A stretch of 64,000 nucleotides of DNA from assembly GCA_000004985.1 (NCBI GenBank), contig GG738933.1, one strand, 5' to 3'. The notes beneath the pieces were generated by a model that ran no database searches, was not told where the DNA came from, and saw only the letters and a program-made list of their open reading frames with translations. This document shows positions 30,281 through 60,302 of this stretch, piece by piece (within the stretch, counting starts at the first letter, position 1; every line of letters starts with the position of its first letter). A program made the position numbers and the translations under genes. Source of the stretch: Naegleria gruberi (lineage: Eukaryota).

Positions 30281-30581
30281 CTTTTCAAAGTAGGCATTTG
30301 CTTCTTTTTTAGTGGGGAAGGGAGAGACTTAATGTTCGGAGTTTTTGTTTTTTTTGTTGTTGTTGTTGTTGTGGAAGATGAAGATGGTTTGTTCTTCTTC
30401 TGTTGTTGGACTTCTCATGAGTCGTGGTGGATTTTGAAATTTGTTGATGTTGACGTTTGTTGTTTTGTTTGCCCATTTTTTTTAAATAAAATAAATAAAA
30501 TTAAAAAACATAAACAATGTTTATCATCATTGAATTTTTACTAAACCTAAAAGTCAATACCCGAATACTAAGGAAAAGGTT

Positions 30582-30654
30582 ACAGCGAGCGGGGCTTGAA
30601 CCCGCGACCTTAAGCGTGTTAGGCTTACGATCTAACCAACTGATCTATCGCTGC
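30582..30654 (-). tRNA. tRNA-Val (anticodon AAC)
   Basis: A 73-nt cloverleaf on the minus strand. The acceptor is GCAGCGA/TCGCTGT, the D-stem GATC/GATC, the anticodon stem TAAGC/GCTTA with loop CTAACAC, and the T-arm GCGGG-TTCAAGC-CCCGC. Confidence 0.85.
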
Positions 30655-36405: not shown

Positions 36406-36478
36406 GCCGACATAGCTCAGTTGGGAGAGCGTAAGACTGAAGATCTTAAGGTCCCTGGTTCGATCCCTGGTGTCGGCA
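36406..36478 (+). tRNA. tRNA-Phe (anticodon GAA)
   Basis: GCCGACATAGCTCAGTTGGGAGAGCGTAAGACTGAAGATCTTAAGGTCCCTGGTTCGATCCCTGGTGTCGGCA. It is close to canonical tRNA-Phe, with one T-T mismatch in the T-stem. Confidence 0.8.
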
Positions 36479-49382: not shown

Positions 49383-49757
49383 TCTTTGTGTTGTTTTTTT
49401 TGTGTCGATTAATTTGATTAACAGCTGACAGTTCCTTACCACTCATTATTTATAACAAACACACAAACAGTTGCAGTTAGCATGAAAAACGCTCGATGAT
49501 GTGCTTGTGCAAACAAGTTTAAGTGGCAAGTAGAAAATGTGATGGAGAATTGAGAAGGTTGCCCTTTAAGGCAATAACAATTTTGGCGGGAAAGTTTGAT
49601 GTGAGGTGAAGTGTTTGCCTAGACAAAATGTATTGAGGTGCGTCGAGTTGTTTCTTGTTGATTTTAAAAGGCTTGTTAGAGGTGGGTATCTATCAGAAAT
49701 CAAAGATGCGAATGAAAGAAAAATCTTTTAATGCATTTTGGCGAATCTATTCAGATT

Positions 49758-52700
49758 CTATTTCTCACTTCGTTTGTAAATAGGTTTTGAATCAATTTGA
49801 TAAATAAGGAAGGCTCTTCCAATAAATTTGGAAATAGCAGCTTGGATCTCTGGCCATTTCTTTAAGACGTTATGGTTGGGGATCTTATCTATATATTCAT
49901 TCTCAAAAAAGGTTATGCCTGAGTGATGGAAATATAGCACATATGAGTATTGGAAAGGAATTTCTTGGATAGGGGAGAGTGAACACTCAGGTCTATCAAG
50001 TATTTCTGTTAATCTATTTTGACAATATCTTCTTTGATTGTCTAGTCTGGGGCATTCATGTATGTAATGTTCTAAATTTGAGGGACAATTACAATCTGAG
50101 CAGGTTGGATTCAATTCATCTTTCTTCTGTGTATATTTGATATGAGAATTTGAAGCGTTTCGCCAAATTTGATATTTGGTTTTAGGTGACAGTCGTGACT
50201 TGAGGTAGGCTACATTAATTGATGACCAGCTTTGGTTTGGAATAAAGTTGGGATTACTATCAATTGCTTCGTGCATCTCCTTAAGTTGGCGATTTACAGT
50301 CATTCTTTTGCAATCAAAGATCACAATATCGTTTTTCATAAGTAAATATTGGTTGGTTAGTAAGGATTTGATATCAAAGATCTTATCTCTTTCAGTTCCA
50401 TCTTTCGCAAGGCGATCTACTATTATATTTTCCTTATCTTCATGTCCTTTAACTTTGATTATATAAACTGAAATATTCTTTTCTTTTTGGATATTGAAAA
50501 ATTCAGTTTTGAAAGGGAGAAAGTTTCCTTTGTATTTTCTGGATAGGACATCTATTGCAACTTTGCTATCTGTGTGTATTCTAGCGGTTGTTCCATTTGG
50601 AAGTAGTTTCATTGCAGTGATAATTGCTCCTATTTCTGCAACATTGTTAGAGTATTCATTATTGATACGGAGTGAAAGGCTTTTACAAGGTGATAACCTT
50701 CCACCGGATTCATATATATTAATACCCATACCTGTTTTACCTGCAAGCTTGGATCCGTCTGTATGGATAATAAAGCATCTATTGGTTTCATTCACTTTCT
50801 TTAATCTGAATTTGGTATGATTCTTTTTGAAATCTAAATTATATTTCTGAAGTATTGACATCCATTGAATGAAAATGTTATTACTATTATCATTGGTATG
50901 ACTAATTCCAAATTTAAAAGCTTTCTGAACTAACTTGTTATTGGAATTTGCTATTAAGGAGAGAGTTCTTAAATTAAGTCTGTCTGTAAATTCTTCAATT
51001 GAGGGAACACCGAGTCCACCTTCTTCTAATGGTAGGTGGAAAAAAGCTGTTTTGGTGGTTCTGTCTAGTTTTAACTTTGTTCTGAGTACATTTCTAATGC
51101 AAATATCTATTCTTGATACCAGTGATGGAGGAATGACATTAAGTTTGGATAGATGTGTAAATAAACTAATCACTTTAGCATGAAGGACTTGTCTTAAATT
51201 ATGGGGTTGAAGTTTGAGTATTGGGAAATATTTCAGTGATTCATTGAATTTAGCTATCTTGCTTTCAATATCTTCTTTGACCAATTTATCTTCCCAAGGG
51301 TAGTGTCCGAGAACTCTAAGATTTTTCTGAATGGGAATTGGCACTTGTTTGATTTTTGGTATGATTTTGCTTTTTGTGGGAAGGAGAGTGGCAATTGACT
51401 TTTTTGCATTTAATTTGAAAAGCAATTGAGATAACCAGTCGTCGATGTTATCTAGTCTTCCATTATAATTTGTGAATCTGTCGCATACTATATTCATATC
51501 GTCAGCGAAACAACAAAGACCAATTTCGTTTGCATTCAATTCAGATGGTTCTATTGGTAGTTGCCATTGGTCTATTGCTTTGTCTATTATGAGTTGTGTA
51601 ATACAATCGTAAATAAGAGGTGCTAATGGGCAACCTTGAGGAATTCCTCGTGTTTTTGTGAAGTTATTTGATAGATGTTTGTCAATTTCTAATTGTAAAC
51701 TGTGATTGCTGTATGCATTAATTATAAAATCAGTTAGTGGTGTTGGGAATTTACAATGATTAAGGGCCATCCTAATAACCGGCATCTCCACTGCGTCGTA
51801 GGCACCTTCAATGTCAAGGTTGACTAATATAAATGTTCTTCGTCTAGTTTTCAAGGCCAGGGAGGAAAGTACTATTCCATGGTTCATTGTATTTCTATTA
51901 TTTATGAAGGCCTGTTGTCTCATATTAATCTGAGAGCTAGCCCATTCACATAATTTGTGGGCGATTAAATTAAAAAGGATTCTATAAAATATTGGTAGTA
52001 TTGTGATGGGTCTAATATCTCCTAATGTTTTAACTTCTCGCTTTGGAATCAGTTTAACCCAACCGTGTTTCCATTCTTGGGGGATATCTCCTTGTGTTAA
52101 ACATTTGTTAAACTCTTCAACTATTAAAGCTAATTTCTCTAATTTTAAGCCCTTGATGATATCTAATGAAATTTCGTCTTGTCCTGGTGTATTCGATTTC
52201 ATTCTTTTAATGGTTTCTTTTACATCTCTATATGAAATCCGACCTATATCTCTAGGACCTGAAGTGATAGTGGATGGACTTGGCATAAAGGTTGGTGTTT
52301 GATTGGAGGTTGTAAACTTTTTGGAAAAATAATCTAAAATTTCTTGTTCTCCAAATGGCAATTCTTTCCAGATAATTTCTTTAGAATGCAGTTTTCTATC
52401 AAATTGATACATGTGGGAGGCGTGACTATTGTTATATTTGTCAGTTAATTGTTCTTTGATTTCTTTACATGATTGGATGTGAGTCTCTTTAAGAATTGTT
52501 TGTAGTTCTGATATTTCATCAAGTCCAACATTTGGGTCTTCTAATTTACCCATAATCTTATTTTCTAATTTACGAATTTTACCTTTAAATATGGAGGAAA
52601 TAATGCTACCACCAAGTCTGTCAACTTTGGTTCCATATTTTGCAATGTTGTTTTGTATTTCTGCATTTAATTCTTGAAATGTATTGGCATTTGACGTATT

Positions 52701-53486
52701 TATCTCTTTGATCATTTCTTCTCTTTTCTTCTTACCAATATATGATCTCCAATTTAAATGTGATTTGAATTCAATATCAATGTAAAAAGGGATGTGATCA
52801 TTACTTGTGAGCGGTGGAAGGAGTTCTTCTTTGATAACCTTAATATCTTTAGACACGAAAATGTGGTCTAATCTTGAAGTGGTGATTCTATTCTGTTGTC
52901 TTCTAATGTAAGTCTTATTATTAGTCTTATATTCTGTTAGTTGGAGTAGATTAAATAGCCAGCACCATTCTTTATCTCTACCGTTTGAAGGATTAATGGT
53001 ATTGATATTAAGATCTCCATTAATTATGACATGTTCATCTCTACATGTCAGTACTGCATTTGTTATACTGTTCATGGCTTCAACATCATTTTCTTTATCA
53101 TCAACTCTTCCACTAAGATATGGAGTGAAAATATTAATTGGTATACCTTTGCTTTCGAATCGTGTCCATTGAAGAACACCTGGAATTAGATTGATATTAG
53201 TAATATTTCTCTTGTGAGGGTTGTTAAGGAAGTGCATAACAGCCGTCCCTTTTTTTCCTTTCGTTGTATTCATTAAGGAGTTAAATAATATATAGCCTGT
53301 TCCTGAATTTTTAACTTTATATTCTAGATCAGGAGTATTTAAATGAGTTTCGGTTAACGAAATCATGTGTATTTTATGATGAAGACACATTGATTTCACT
53401 TCTGGTGTAACCGATTTCTTACTAGCATGTTTATACAGGCCGTTTACATTGTAACACGCTAGTCGTAAATTACTATAATTACTCAT
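49758..53486 (-). CDS. LINE ORF2: AP-endonuclease - reverse transcriptase - RNase H - CCHC zinc finger polyprotein (1242 aa)
   Basis: N-terminal exo/endo/phosphatase motifs (CYNVNGL, SLTETH, GDLN, SRLDHIF). RT motifs occur around FADDMNIV. RNase H motifs are IHTDGSK and KVKGHED. The C-terminus is a CCHC module (CSDCNCPSNLEHYIHEC). Confidence 0.85.
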   Translation of the reverse strand: MSNYSNLRLACYNVNGLYKHASKKSVTPEVKSMCLHHKIHMISLTETHLNTPDLEYKVKNSGTGYILFNSLMNTTKGKKGTAVMHFLNNPHKRNITNINLIPGVLQWTRFESKGIPINIFTPYLSGRVDDKENDVEAMNSITNAVLTCRDEHVIINGDLNINTINPSNGRDKEWCWLFNLLQLTEYKTNNKTYIRRQQNRITTSRLDHIFVSKDIKVIKEELLPPLTSNDHIPFYIDIEFKSHLNWRSYIGKKKREEMIKEINTSNANTFQELNAEIQNNIAKYGTKVDRLGGSIISSIFKGKIRKLENKIMGKLEDPNVGLDEISELQTILKETHIQSCKEIKEQLTDKYNNSHASHMYQFDRKLHSKEIIWKELPFGEQEILDYFSKKFTTSNQTPTFMPSPSTITSGPRDIGRISYRDVKETIKRMKSNTPGQDEISLDIIKGLKLEKLALIVEEFNKCLTQGDIPQEWKHGWVKLIPKREVKTLGDIRPITILPIFYRILFNLIAHKLCEWASSQINMRQQAFINNRNTMNHGIVLSSLALKTRRRTFILVNLDIEGAYDAVEMPVIRMALNHCKFPTPLTDFIINAYSNHSLQLEIDKHLSNNFTKTRGIPQGCPLAPLIYDCITQLIIDKAIDQWQLPIEPSELNANEIGLCCFADDMNIVCDRFTNYNGRLDNIDDWLSQLLFKLNAKKSIATLLPTKSKIIPKIKQVPIPIQKNLRVLGHYPWEDKLVKEDIESKIAKFNESLKYFPILKLQPHNLRQVLHAKVISLFTHLSKLNVIPPSLVSRIDICIRNVLRTKLKLDRTTKTAFFHLPLEEGGLGVPSIEEFTDRLNLRTLSLIANSNNKLVQKAFKFGISHTNDNSNNIFIQWMSILQKYNLDFKKNHTKFRLKKVNETNRCFIIHTDGSKLAGKTGMGINIYESGGRLSPCKSLSLRINNEYSNNVAEIGAIITAMKLLPNGTTARIHTDSKVAIDVLSRKYKGNFLPFKTEFFNIQKEKNISVYIIKVKGHEDKENIIVDRLAKDGTERDKIFDIKSLLTNQYLLMKNDIVIFDCKRMTVNRQLKEMHEAIDSNPNFIPNQSWSSINVAYLKSRLSPKTKYQIWRNASNSHIKYTQKKDELNPTCSDCNCPSNLEHYIHECPRLDNQRRYCQNRLTEILDRPECSLSPIQEIPFQYSYVLYFHHSGITFFENEYIDKIPNHNVLKKWPEIQAAISKFIGRAFLIYQIDSKPIYKRSEK

Positions 53487-55123
53487 TTAGAAAGAGTACA
53501 AGATGATGAGCTTTTTGATTCTTCATCATCTTGCATAATAGAATTATTAGTACTATTATTTATATAATGGGAGATTTTGTCAATAAGTTCCATTGTATCA
53601 GCTAATGCTTTCTTAAAATCACGCAGTTCAGTTTCAATATTAGATAGTCTAGTTTCAAATAGATTGGTTGTTGTATTAATAGTAGGAGTAACTACAGAAT
53701 TAGTGGTTGAACTGGTATTATCGTTAGATTGTATAGGATTGATCATAGGATTAGTTACTTCCGGTAATTTAGAGTTAGTTAGAAATGGATATTGTTTTTG
53801 TTTTCTTTCAATTATTTCATCTAATTGTTTAATAGATGGTACGAAACAGTAACTGGTTCCATCAGTAATGTTTTGTTTGGTATTGAGAACAATTTTCTTG
53901 TCAATAAATAGATTCATTTCGTCAATATTTGAATGGACGACTTTACATAATTTAAAGGTAGTGGTATTGGATTTGTTTTTGGATTCAGTTATCATGCATT
54001 GGTTAGTATTGAAATCTTTTTTAATGCGTTCGTATACACGAGTAACACCATCGATGATTTCCTTGTTTGTAAAGGTAGGTGGAAATAAACATTCTGAAAC
54101 ATTAGTAGGAGTTTCATTACGCAATTGTTCAACAGATTTGTAATTAGTTAAATTAAGCTTCTTTCTAATAACTTCGCACACATCTTCGTTTTCGTATGAA
54201 ACTCTAATTATATATTTACCATGTGATTGGTTTGTATACATTTGGGAGATAAGTATAGTATTATCGTTATTAACTGAGTGTTTGATTAGTGATTTAATCA
54301 TATCAATGTGTTGTGAATATATGTGTGTAGAGTGAGTTAGAGCGTACAAGCTATGCTCGAATACAGCAGGTGATGGGAAGAATTTCAATATTAAATCATT
54401 GTGTACACTATCAAGCATATCTTTGCAAAGAATATAATTGTCATTACTATTGCAATGAAGATTAATGACATTACTAGTTTGGGGTCTTATTTTAATGGTG
54501 GCAAATTCCCCAAAGATGTCCATAATTTGTTCCATGAATTTGTTATTAATTCTTTCATAGCAGATAATATTAAGTGAATGTGTCAAATCGAATTTCTTAT
54601 TTTGCTTGACTGGTTTTTTACCATAGAATGAAATTGAGCGTTTCATTTTGATTTGTTTTGCTATAGTTTGTTTGATACTTGGTTGAGCTTTTATAGGGTG
54701 ATACTTCACCATATCCAAATATGGAGTAAGTTGTAGTTTGGTATTTTGCTCAATAGGGTTCTTACTACATTCATATTTTGGTTTAATATTACTAGTAATG
54801 GAATGAATTTGTTGATTTCTATTTTGGGGAGTTGACTTAATATTTTGGATTTCTGAAGTAGGTTTTTTAAATGAATCAGTAGAAATGTTAGTGGTAGAAG
54901 TATCTTCTTGATTAATATTATCAACTTTAACCTTTACATCTTTGTCTTGTACAAACTCGGATTTAAACATTATTTTGTCGTAAATCTTTTGCATAGTTTC
55001 CATGTATTTTTGAAGACGAATATTTTCAATCCGATATGAATCGACTGCTTGTTCTAACACAAGAATCCTGTTAGTCAGCTGCAGACAATTTATTGGATCA
55101 GGAGGGCGGTCATGTAAAGGCAT
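53483..55123 (-). CDS. LINE ORF1 (546 aa, N-terminal coiled-coil, nucleic-acid-binding-type protein)
   Basis: It lies immediately upstream of ORF2 within the TSD-delimited element. Its stop overlaps the ORF2 start as ATGA. The N-terminus is heptad-rich. Confidence 0.7.
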   Translation of the reverse strand: MPLHDRPPDPINCLQLTNRILVLEQAVDSYRIENIRLQKYMETMQKIYDKIMFKSEFVQDKDVKVKVDNINQEDTSTTNISTDSFKKPTSEIQNIKSTPQNRNQQIHSITSNIKPKYECSKNPIEQNTKLQLTPYLDMVKYHPIKAQPSIKQTIAKQIKMKRSISFYGKKPVKQNKKFDLTHSLNIICYERINNKFMEQIMDIFGEFATIKIRPQTSNVINLHCNSNDNYILCKDMLDSVHNDLILKFFPSPAVFEHSLYALTHSTHIYSQHIDMIKSLIKHSVNNDNTILISQMYTNQSHGKYIIRVSYENEDVCEVIRKKLNLTNYKSVEQLRNETPTNVSECLFPPTFTNKEIIDGVTRVYERIKKDFNTNQCMITESKNKSNTTTFKLCKVVHSNIDEMNLFIDKKIVLNTKQNITDGTSYCFVPSIKQLDEIIERKQKQYPFLTNSKLPEVTNPMINPIQSNDNTSSTTNSVVTPTINTTTNLFETRLSNIETELRDFKKALADTMELIDKISHYINNSTNNSIMQDDEESKSSSSCTLSK

Positions 55124-55999
55124 TTTTTTAAAAGTCGCGAATGAAAGAAAAATGATTGGAGGATAAAGTTTACAATATTTGAGGTAATTTCAATGTTGTT
55201 GAAAGGGATCAAAAATAAGTATTTGGAGGTGATTTTGCTCCTATTGAAAAAGAGTGTTTACTTCCTGTTAAAAAAGAGTTTATTCCAATTAGTGTTACTT
55301 ATTAAAAAAATGTTTAATGAAACAATTGTTTCCTGTCACCTTAATCGCTCATCTTGCTCTTGCTGTCAAGATCATTAAAATTATAATTTAGTGGTTGTGA
55401 AACAGCTACCATCCTCCTATTTATACTAGAATCTGCCTTGTGTATGTTCATGCTCTTTTAAGAACTTTTTTAAACAACGTGAATGATCTAAACTTGAACA
55501 GAACTTTTTAAGATTTGTTTCAAATCAAATTACTCTTAATATTTAAAGCCCAAAAGCAATGGTTGTATATTGAAAGTTCAAAAATGTCTTTTAATATTAC
55601 CGTTACAATCAACAATTTAATGAAAATTGTAAACCAAGTCCGTCAAGTTCCCAATCAATTTTACCAAAAAAGATGCCGAAGAGATCAAACCGACAAATTC
55701 ATAAAAAAATCAAAAAAATTATCTCCACTCAATCAACCCACCCACCAACCTATCTTTTTTAATATTAACCTAACTTGCTCTCATAAATACAGAATTTGAG
55801 AAAATATATTATTCGGTTAGGAAAGAAGATTATATATTGTACTATTATAAATATTATTGAAGCTCTATTATACTAACTTGCATATATTGGGATTTATTGT
55901 TCGATCTAAATAGACACATATAATTCCTATCAAATATAATACAAAGGTTTAAATATATTGTAACATACCATTTAAGAAATATTGAATACTATTTAGAAA

Positions 56000-56617
56000 A
56001 TGCTTCGTTTTGCAAATCCAATAATAACAATTTCAACTCCTTCGAATTCACGAACGAATCCAGTCATTCAGTTAGCTCCTGGATCGACTCTTTCGAATAA
56101 TCAGCCGCAAATTTCTAATGAACAAATTGCCATGATCAATGCATTGGGTAATTATACAGGTGAATCTGAGGAGAAATGTCTTCGTTATTTGATCTTTTTT
56201 GGTTGGAACTTTGAGTTGGCATATAAGGCAACTGTTTTATTGAGCCAAGAGCTGTGTGAAAGAACCAAATTGTCTAATTTGTTTCTTGCGAGAAGAATTT
56301 TAGAAGAAGCACAATTTGATGTGACGTTGTGTCATCAGCGAATGGAATTAGTCTTGTATTTGATGAATAGAACTAATTTGGTTCATGTATTTGCCTATGA
56401 TTGCTTGCAACAATATCAATGGAATATCAACAGTGCTTTACAACGAGTTTTTGAGTTGGCTTCCATGAATAGATTACCTTCTCATGCATTTTCAACAATT
56501 CCTAATTTGCAAGTGCAACAACAATCGAATAACAATCAACCAGATTCTGCCAGATCACTGCTTGCTCTTCAAACTGCTTACCATAACCAATCGAGACACA
56601 ATTTATTTAAATTGTAA
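56000..56617 (+). CDS. Protein with two TAP-C/UBA-like domains
   Basis: NEQIAMINALGNYTGESEEKCLRYLIFFGWNFELAYKATV matches the TAP-C pattern (F...TGM...WS.KCL.DN.WD...A). A second similar unit ends ...CLQQYQWNINSALQRVFEL. Confidence 0.4.
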   Translation: MLRFANPIITISTPSNSRTNPVIQLAPGSTLSNNQPQISNEQIAMINALGNYTGESEEKCLRYLIFFGWNFELAYKATVLLSQELCERTKLSNLFLARRILEEAQFDVTLCHQRMELVLYLMNRTNLVHVFAYDCLQQYQWNINSALQRVFELASMNRLPSHAFSTIPNLQVQQQSNNNQPDSARSLLALQTAYHNQSRHNLFKL

Positions 56618-59125: not shown

Positions 59126-60302
59126 TTACAAATTGAAAGATAATCTTTCCCATTCACCAACAGCACTTCTATTGACAACAATATCTCCACTTGGTTCCAC
59201 ACAAACATAGGTATTATGTTCAGATTTCAATGCAATAGCTCCATTTCCATGCAATTCAACACTAAATTGTTCCCAAGGTCCAACAGCATCACGATTAGCA
59301 ACCAACAAACCACTTGGTTCAGCACACATCAATTTACCATGAGCAGATCTGAATGCATTCTTTCCAGCTCCATGATGTTCAACAGTGAATTGTTCCCAAG
59401 GACCAACTGCATCACGATTGGCAACCATTGAATGATTTGATTCAGCACACAACAATTTACCATGATGATGTCTCAATGAAATGCTCTGATTTGGAGCCAA
59501 TGAAAATTGGAACTGTTCCCAAGGTCCCAAAGCATCTCTATTAGCAATAACTAATCCAGATGGCTCAGCACACAAGAATTTACCATGAGCTGATTTGAAT
59601 GCCACTTGATTTCCAGATTGAACCAATGAGAAAGTTTCCCACGGACCCAAAGCATCTCTATTGGCAATAATTTCACCACTTGGTTCAGCACACATGAATT
59701 TTCCATGAGCTGATTTGAATGCATAATCATTTCCAGAAATGTGAATCAAAGTCATTGCTTCCCAAGCTCCACTGGCATCACGATTGGCGACAACTTGACC
59801 ACTTGGTTCGATACAGAAGTATTTGGAATGACAAGATCTGAGATTGGCCAATAGGGAACGATGTTTGGCTGAGTGGATAGTGTAGGATCCATGTGGACCA
59901 GAATAATTGGTTCCTGGATAGGACATGCCACCTCCAGTGACGAAAAGATAGACATTGATAAAGTCGGAGAGGGAAATGGACTTGCTCTTGGCATGATCAA
60001 CGAGTTTAAATAAGAATCTAATGAAATTTTGATTATTCGAAAGTAAACTATTTCTGTACTTACTTGATTTCTTCCTTGGCGAGACCAATATCTTGAGCAG
60101 CTTTCTTCCATTCCTTCTTATTCATGGAATTGGAGTGATCCTTGTCGTATTGTTGGAAAGTAGATTGTGCTTGAGAGATGAGTTGTTGATCTTGACCATG
60201 TTGAGGCTAAAGTAGAGTAAACTAGACGAAAGTATGAGAATGCGTACTTACAATTTGGAAACCAGAAGGTGCCCATGATGGTTGTTGTCCTTGATACCAC
60301 AT
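59126..60302 (-). CDS. EF-hand pair + six fascin/hisactophilin-like beta-trefoil repeats (3 exons)
   Basis: Exons are 60302..60252, 60206..60075 and 60029..59126, with GTAAGT introns. The EF loop is DKDHSNSMNKKE. Six ~40-aa repeats follow, of the form AFKSAHGKF(M/L)CAEPSG..(I/V)ANRDA.GPWE.F, similar to hisactophilin (AFKSHHGHFLSAEGEAV) and fascin trefoil subrepeats. The exon 2/3 boundaries are approximate to a few nt. Confidence 0.6.

Follow-up and report, generated by a model that had tools for sequence, protein, structure and literature searches.

In stringent-type long interspersed nuclear elements (LINEs), such as eel UnaL2/L2 and R2, the reverse transcriptase (RT) recognises a 3′ stem-loop. 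The TRE elements of Dictyostelium are L1-clade LINEs that insert ∼50-150 bp from tRNA genes, and for human L1 the re-initiation that yields the product of the second open reading frame (ORF2) has been reported to proceed without the need for an AUG. In the LINE SART1 a stop-start overlap, UAAUG, is a documented route to ORF2 translation (PMC3894237). An RNase H domain has been reported in the I group (Ingi, I, Nimb, Loa, R1, Tad1, Loner, Outcast), in plant L1, in Proto1 and in Dualen/RandI (PMC4640811). Here we compare with these systems an element found in a stretch of 64,000 nucleotides of Naegleria gruberi DNA (contig GG738933.1, assembly GCA_000004985.1), referred to as the window throughout. 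The element occupies 5412 bp on the minus strand (49725-55136) and is read, with a probability of roughly 0.9, as an intact, autonomous LINE of the apurinic/apyrimidinic endonuclease (APE) type that belongs to a Naegleria/Willaertia lineage and was recently inserted into an N. gruberi intergenic region by target-primed reverse transcription. All structural hallmarks of an APE-type retrotransposon lacking long terminal repeats (non-LTR retrotransposon) are present in it.

Naegleria genomes are compact and transposon-poor. In N. fowleri, LINEs account for 1.85% of the genome, and in N. lovaniensis for 0.25% (PMC6831594, PMC6125883). Our literature search found no family-level description of Naegleria LINEs, which were reported only as a repeat class.

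Boundaries and target-site duplications

The interval of 5412 bp lies between two copies of one 17-mer, GCGAATGAAAGAAAAAT. An earlier reading made from the sequence alone (the sequence-only reading) had placed exact copies at 49708-49724 and 55137-55153 with unlike bases outside them (t/c before, c/g after), and both statements were confirmed by a direct sequence check. The window holds only these two matches to GCGAATGAAAGAAAAAT at up to two mismatches, the chance expectation being 0.13. Besides this pair, no exact direct repeats of at least 16 nt were found at a spacing within 8 kb and outside low-complexity sequence; long repeats (LTRs or terminal inverted repeats) were found neither inside the element nor at its ends, and no further LINE-like sequence was found elsewhere in the 64 kb. 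On its own strand the element starts with GACTTTT and ends with TTAAAAG, and both ends are homologous to those of the relatives L001 and L005 and of the N. fowleri copies. The 17-mer copy on its 5′ side (55137-55153) reads ATTTTTCTTTCATTCGC on the element strand and is preceded by C (g at window position 55154), while the copy on its 3′ side (49708-49724) adjoins the 3′ terminus of the element with its ATTTTT end.

The nature of the 17-mer as a target-site duplication (TSD) was examined by comparison with N. fowleri relatives at six loci, which represent five distinct sites (L004 and L008 are one site). The N. fowleri copies are 99.0-99.7% identical to one another, and their ORF2 is 45% identical to the window ORF2. 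They always end in ...CTAATTAG and start with (C/T)GACGCAAAAAAA(A/T)TG. Each site carries its own duplication, of 17 bp in L002 (ATTTTTTTTTGATATTA) and in L006 (ATTTTTTTATGTCGGCT), of 15 bp at the site shared by L004 and L008 (ATTTTTTTTTAATTT), of 10 bp in L007 (ATTTTTTTGA, together with 8 extra nt that repeat the element 5′ end) and of 13 bp in the 5′-truncated L009 (ATTTTTTTTGTTT, with TCC microhomology). At all five sites the duplication starts with ATTTTT directly after the element 3′ end, and C stands before the upstream copy. The window copy conforms to this rule (c|ATTTTTCTTTCATTCGC, 17 bp). Likewise, ATTTTTTT directly follows the 3′ end in L001, L003 and L005, and in L005 a C and then ATTTTTTT are also found before the leader. 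The presence of C|ATTTTT at every junction cannot be chance, and these junctions demonstrate that the lineage inserts at C|ATTTTT on the element strand, which corresponds to AAAAAT^G on the primer strand. Because the N. fowleri copies at five sites carry their own 10-17 bp duplications under this rule, the 17-mer is taken to be a genuine TSD, in agreement with the sequence-only reading.

A chance repeat, with the real ends of the element lying elsewhere, is an extremely improbable account of the 17-mer pair. The A/T-rich composition of the 17-mer and the abundance of CATTTTT in the window (34 sites on both strands, ∼1 per 1.9 kb) would favour it, but no third match appears in 64 kb even with two mismatches, the repeats are placed precisely where homology to the conserved 5′ leader and 3′ end of the family predicts, and the TSDs at the five N. 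fowleri sites agree with the 17-mer in length and in their first bases. The frequency of CATTTTT does indicate that the rule is a motif preference and not a strict site specificity. It is also possible, if somewhat unlikely, that ATTTTT beside the 3′ ends is templated by the RNA, in that the transcript would end in an A+U-run and pair with A-rich nicked DNA, and does not reflect sequence-specific cleavage. ATTTTT follows every copy, so that AUUUUU would be present in read-through transcripts, and the 3′ end of the RNA itself (..UUAAAAG, ..UAAUUAG) is unable to pair with an AAAAAT-3′ primer. The motif and its preceding C are, however, also found in target DNA, at the far (5′) side of each TSD; moreover, pairing by the RNA template and cleavage by the endonuclease are compatible and not exclusive.

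Several peculiarities were observed at the junctions. In the window, AAAG is found two bases beyond the 17-mer at both 49702-49707 and 55131-55136 (AAAGatGCG... vs AAAGtcGCG...); on the element strand this is a 4-nt CTTT common to the element 5′ end and the target flank, which may be a microhomology used in 5′ joining or may be due to chance. At the 5′ junction of L007 (3868-3877), the 8 extra nt AATGACGC repeat the element 5′ terminus (GACGC), and in the other N. fowleri copies GACGC is preceded by one additional C or T. Such extra nucleotides would fit template jumping or cap copying as reverse transcription finishes. In L004 (9617-11239), the T-run that borders the LINE 3′ end is immediately followed by ORFs resembling those of DIRS/tyrosine-recombinase retroelements, whereas in L008, at the same N. 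fowleri locus, host sequence continues (from 9628 onward); this suggests that either the TSD received a further insertion later or the two contigs represent different haplotypes.

Domains of the ORF2 protein

The element length, an ORF1 of 546 amino acids (aa), an ORF2 of 1242 aa and the ATGA at which they overlap were all reproduced as they had been read from the sequence. ORF2 (49758-53486, minus strand) is uninterrupted and encodes, in this order, the APE-type endonuclease, RT, RNase H and CCHC motif that the sequence-only reading had assigned to it, as borne out by Pfam and by motif positions. The endonuclease (aa 12-234; 52785-53453, minus strand) shows the motifs CYNVNG, LTETH, GDLNIN, RLDHIF and SNDHIP, and its catalytic motifs are present (N13, E46, D158/N160, D207-H208 and D230-H231). 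Its Pfam matches are both slightly below threshold (Exo_endo_phos_2, E 2.9e-5, 24.3 bits for a cut-off of 27.4; Exo_endo_phos, E 3.7e-4), and the relatives show the same matches as the window ORF2. The RT (aa 480-728; 51303-52049, minus strand) was recognised as RVT_1 with E 2.9e-26 and matched the RTs of R2 and of L1 ORF2p in the PDB with E 8e-21 to 7e-16. The catalytic FADD, whose absence would have spoken against a LINE, is found at 660-663 and is invariant across the family. The RNase H (aa 905-1031; 50394-50774, minus strand; Pfam RNase_H, E 6.4e-14) has a D-E-D-H-D set of residues (D910, E951, D973, H1015 and D1024) that is likewise invariant in the family. When the endonuclease or the RNase H domain was searched alone against the PDB, the matches were weak, generic and uninformative on the clade. 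The C-terminal CCHC motif, CSDCNCPSNLEHYIHEC (aa 1129-1145; 50052-50102, minus strand), has the form C1129-x2-C-x7-H-x4-C1145.

Properties of ORF1

ORF1 (53483-55123, minus strand) is uninterrupted, and its product is identical to the predicted N. gruberi protein P0039, which is encoded on a scaffold of 99,287 bp. It evolves fast, the identity among four lineages being only 20-28%. Sequence and profile searches of Pfam and the PDB with four ORF1 homologues gave no match to any known family, and a CCHC zinc-knuckle pattern was not found in ORF1. Searches for further homologues, with a single sequence and with a four-sequence profile, returned only two N. gruberi proteins. Single-sequence AlphaFold models had a predicted local distance difference test (pLDDT) score of 35.8 for full ORF1 and of 40.9 for residues 170-460, too poor for a fold search. 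They hint at an alpha/beta middle part flanked at either end by long helices. A coiled-coil N-terminus had been proposed for this protein; what the models offer for it is a helix at residues 10-54, predicted with low confidence.

The 5′ leader and the 3′ hairpin

The ORF1 start codon is preceded by a leader of 13 nt, GACTTTTAAAAAA (55124-55136, minus strand), which follows the conserved family pattern G(A/T)C..A6-8 ATG. With the start codon included, the leader reads GACTTTTAAAAAAATG in the window, GTCTTTCAAAAAAATG in L005, GTCTTCAAAAAAAATG in L001 and GACGCAAAAAAAATG in N. fowleri. Both its length and its pattern are conserved across lineages whose ORF2 is only 45-52% identical to that of the window, so that full-length elements do begin ∼13 nt before ORF1. 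An RNA that starts 13 nt before ORF1 would place the promoter inside the element, and an internal promoter is our inference for this family.

At the other end, the 3′ untranslated region is 33 nt long (49725-49757, minus strand), ends in ...TTAAAAG and contains neither a poly(A) nor a simple-repeat tail. The short leader and the missing poly(A), both seen in the sequence-only reading of the window copy, could be extended to the family by way of the relatives. A hairpin, GAAUCU-GAAU-AGAUUC, is predicted 18 nt before the 3′ end (49743-49758, minus strand). The hairpin is the centroid structure in all four lineages: its sequence in L001 is that of the window, in L005 it is GAAUCC-CAGUU-GGAUUC and in N. 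fowleri AAUCC-UCAC-GGAUU. In the alignment of the four sequences 95.8% of the cells were paired, compared to 12-62% in slid controls, and one compensatory pair was present (U-A to C-G). These observations are suggestive of a conserved 3′ hairpin rather than proof of it. As there is no poly(A), the hairpin would be the obvious candidate for the feature recognised by the RT. A metagenome scan with the 18-nt hairpin motif gave 16 matches, none of them with LINE coding sequence, and these are regarded as chance matches.

The likeness to stringent-type LINEs lies in the absence of poly(A) and in a short conserved hairpin near the 3′ end, which is retained although the lineages have only ∼45-52% ORF2 identity. 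The Naegleria element differs from them in having no terminal simple repeat and a hairpin of only 5-6 bp, for which recognition by the RT is a candidate role.

The ORF1/ORF2 junction

In the window, the ORF1 stop codon, TGA, overlaps the ORF2 start in ATGA (53483-53486, minus strand), and the ORF2 frame is closed by a TAA directly before the ATG (TAAATGA). Since this TAA immediately precedes the ATG, a frameshift fusion of ORF1 and ORF2 is impossible and ORF2 initiation must take place at or after that AUG; a fusion of this kind was considered and ruled out. Among the relatives, L005 has the same ATGA, whereas in L001 the junction reads TTGA and an AUG first appears 24 nt downstream. The N. 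fowleri consensus lacks a junction AUG, with ORF2 in a different relative frame and an overlap of ∼40 nt. A conserved RNA structure around the junction was not supported (z-scores -1.5, +0.7 and -1.8).

Termination-reinitiation at ATGA, as proposed in the sequence-only reading, is the best reading for the window copy: the exact stop/start overlap and the closed ORF2 frame argue for it, and its standing is reduced by the occurrence of ATGA in only two of the four lineages. Alternatively, ORF2 could be translated from a subgenomic RNA of its own or by independent initiation (through leaky scanning, an internal ribosome entry site or a codon other than AUG). The variable junction, with TTGA in L001 and an AUG-less overlap in another frame in N. 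fowleri, and the lack of a conserved structure would fit such a route, which we nevertheless find rather unlikely, given the exact overlap in both the window and L005 and the implausibility of leaky scanning past a 1.6-kb ORF1 with many AUGs. The AUG-independent re-initiation reported for human L1 would also speak against it. Termination-reinitiation invites comparison with SART1 (Bombyx, R1 clade). In both elements the ORF1 stop overlaps the ORF2 start with no spacer between them, which points to translational coupling. The overlap is UAAUG in SART1 and AUGA (-1 frame) in the window, however, and in the Naegleria element no downstream structure was detected and the overlap is not conserved across the lineage.

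Copies in N. gruberi and age of the insertion

The window ORF2 matches an 813-aa gene model, P0019 (NAEGRDRAFT_54470), on the same scaffold as P0039. A second pair of models, P0001 and P0040, is located on a scaffold of 182,562 bp, this copy being NAEGRDRAFT_54134, and differs at 1/813 residues in ORF2 and at 1/387 in ORF1. Both 813-aa models start at an internal Met and have the whole RT domain spliced out (...QEWKH|EEGGLG...), so that the public annotation of the element is wrong; in the second copy, the ORF1 model begins at Met160. The splicing in P0001 and P0019 and the Met160 start are annotation artefacts on a transposon.

A recent insertion, claimed earlier from the sequence, is supported by the perfect TSD, the intact ORFs and the near-identical second copy. 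The element is complete and apparently still functional. It may be argued instead that the element has not been mobile recently, the second copy being the other haplotype, the ORFs being intact merely because the insertion is young or selected, and the family being effectively single-copy. Only two near-identical copies are annotated in N. gruberi, strain NEG-M is described as heterozygous with a mosaic pattern (PMC6201504, after the genome paper), and N. fowleri offers a precedent of one locus on two contigs (L004 and L008). We consider this quite unlikely: a perfect TSD around a fully intact 5.4 kb favours recent insertion, the Met160 start of the second ORF1 model hints at a different 5′ structure, and in N. 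fowleri the sister families clearly comprise many young copies.

Lineage and relationship to described clades

A HMMER search with a profile of five ORF2 sequences resulted in 73 cluster representatives at E ≤ 1e-30. The strongest matches form a tight group, after which generic LINE RTs follow at about 1e-36 to 1e-38. The group includes at least five different 90%-identity clusters of N. gruberi, two of N. fowleri (30 and 14 members), sequences of N. lovaniensis and of Willaertia magna, whose full-length Willaertia members score E at most 1e-73, as well as contigs from metagenomes and Logan. Copies are numerous in the related N. fowleri family, and one of them (L009) is 5′-truncated. Proteins from outside Naegleria and Willaertia score, at best, at the level of generic LINE RTs. 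One high-scoring protein of Artemia franciscana (P0048, KAK2723435.1; E 4e-104) was rejected as a close relative, as its 1996 aa contain ∼6 tandem RT fragments that inflate the score. A metagenome scan with the ORF2 alignment gave 151 pattern matches, none of which was a relative. The proteins obtained in the homology searches were all without a name or labelled 'hypothetical', and none bore a clade label.

The element is filed as an APE-type LINE with an I-group-like ORF2, an assignment based on architecture, while clades are defined by RT phylogeny. Shared with the I group are the two ORFs, the N-terminal APE, the RT, a downstream D-E-D-H-D RNase H and a C-terminal Cys/His motif, as well as TSDs produced via target-primed reverse transcription. 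The ORF1 of the Naegleria element differs in having neither the gag-like CCHC knuckles typical of I, Loa and others nor any recognisable domain. With the L1 clade it shares the bicistronic ORF1/ORF2 organisation, the APE-RT-CCHC order, a short-motif target preference set by the endonuclease, 5′-truncated copies, as seen in N. fowleri, and microhomology at the 5′ junction. It is unlike L1 in having no poly(A), in its target, C|ATTTTT and not TT|AAAA, and in possessing an RNase H. Nor was a match to Transposase_22 (coiled coil - RRM - CTD) found for the four ORF1 homologues in Pfam or the PDB, and the models of the window ORF1 were too poor to test the fold.

Genomic context

The element is intergenic. 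On one side lies a U-box/ankyrin gene on the minus strand, with an ORF extending to 49442, and on the other a plus-strand gene that starts near 56000. Element and U-box gene have the same orientation, and the element 3′ end is situated ∼280 bp upstream of this gene, where the sequence-only reading had located it. That reading had also set the element apart from tRNA genes, which holds within the window: Rfam gave only two tRNA genes (30581-30654 and 36406-36478), both more than 13 kb from the element and neither with a retroelement beside it. This distance to the nearest tRNA gene distinguishes the Naegleria element from TRE.

In the window the target AAAAATG opens a 4-codon ORF only, and no gene start was hit. 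At three of the five N. fowleri sites the target ATG is the first codon of an opposite-strand ORF of 235-577 aa. It is the start of an annotated TELO2-like gene in L002 (7370-7388) and of an annotated Nas2/PDZ gene in L004 (4003-4019) and L008 (4032-4062), in each case head-to-head with the element; in L009 (7968-7981) it is in frame with a TPR gene whose annotated start lies ∼30 nt downstream. At these sites the TSD keeps the ATG and ∼15 nt of leader, and the region upstream of the gene is displaced by 5.6 kb. Start codons are hit because an A-rich leader followed by ATG gives the target motif when reverse-complemented. A bolder view would be that the Naegleria/Willaertia LINEs are a distinct, undescribed clade whose endonuclease recognises the host translation-start context (A-run + AT^G), so that copies often come to lie head-to-head on start codons, and in which the 13-nt leader and the ORF1 start form a compact, possibly bidirectional promoter. 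This view is speculative, and we hold it to be unlikely.

Two further repeats were noted in the window away from the element. Positions 1-2470 contain three (CCCAAA)n arrays of telomere type (1-456, ∼820-1270 and ∼2231-2466) with N runs between them; arrays 1 and 3 are each followed by a copy of one subtelomere-like unit, starting at 457 and at 2467, respectively. The arrays at the window start indicate a scaffold end that looks telomeric, and they are either a scaffold end of stacked telomere reads or true interstitial telomeric repeats. At 59147-59841 there are six tandem units of ∼123 bp, 64-81% identical to a reference copy. As this period is a multiple of three, the repeat probably represents a 41-residue protein repeat in a gene on either strand.

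Proposed mechanism and significance

Several observations weigh against the reading of the element as an intact, recently inserted LINE of a Naegleria/Willaertia lineage, or against parts of it. The ends and the TSD of the window family are confirmed only via relatives whose ORF2 is about 42-53% identical, and the second N. gruberi copy may be an allelic haplotig instead of a separate insertion. The Pfam matches of the endonuclease fall below the curated cut-offs. As ATGA is kept in two of four lineages, the AUG overlap cannot be regarded as fixed in the lineage. Support for the hairpin comes from four sequences with a single covarying pair, its score was reached in 87 of 500 shuffles, and L003 is without it.

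Insertion of the element as a LINE might proceed as follows. The endonuclease would nick the bottom strand after AAAAAT, and the RT would start on the 3′ end of the RNA, recognised via the conserved 3′ hairpin and not via poly(A). Since ATTTTT follows every copy, a read-through transcript would supply an AUUUUU able to pair with the AAAAAT-3′ primer, and this tail may, as a hypothesis, assist by pairing with the nicked target. A top-strand cut ∼17 bp downstream would then give rise to the TSD. The RNA would begin 13 nt before ORF1, from a promoter within the element, and the ORF2 protein would be made by re-initiation at the AUG overlapping the ORF1 stop. Apart from its C|ATTTTT target motif, the element is an ordinary, typical LINE of a well-known kind, in an organism without a detailed description of such elements.

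The NCBI gene models of ORF2 (813 aa) need correction. Silencing by 5-methylcytosine (5mC) and heterochromatin has been reported on young transposable elements (PMC12344493), and the element is a target for such silencing as well as a marker for strain and haplotype history. The C|ATTTTT rule, the 13-nt leader and the 3′ hairpin provide concrete hypotheses on target choice, promoter architecture and template recognition. As an intact and probably active LINE, the element would be a natural insertional mutagen for N. gruberi, a laboratory model.

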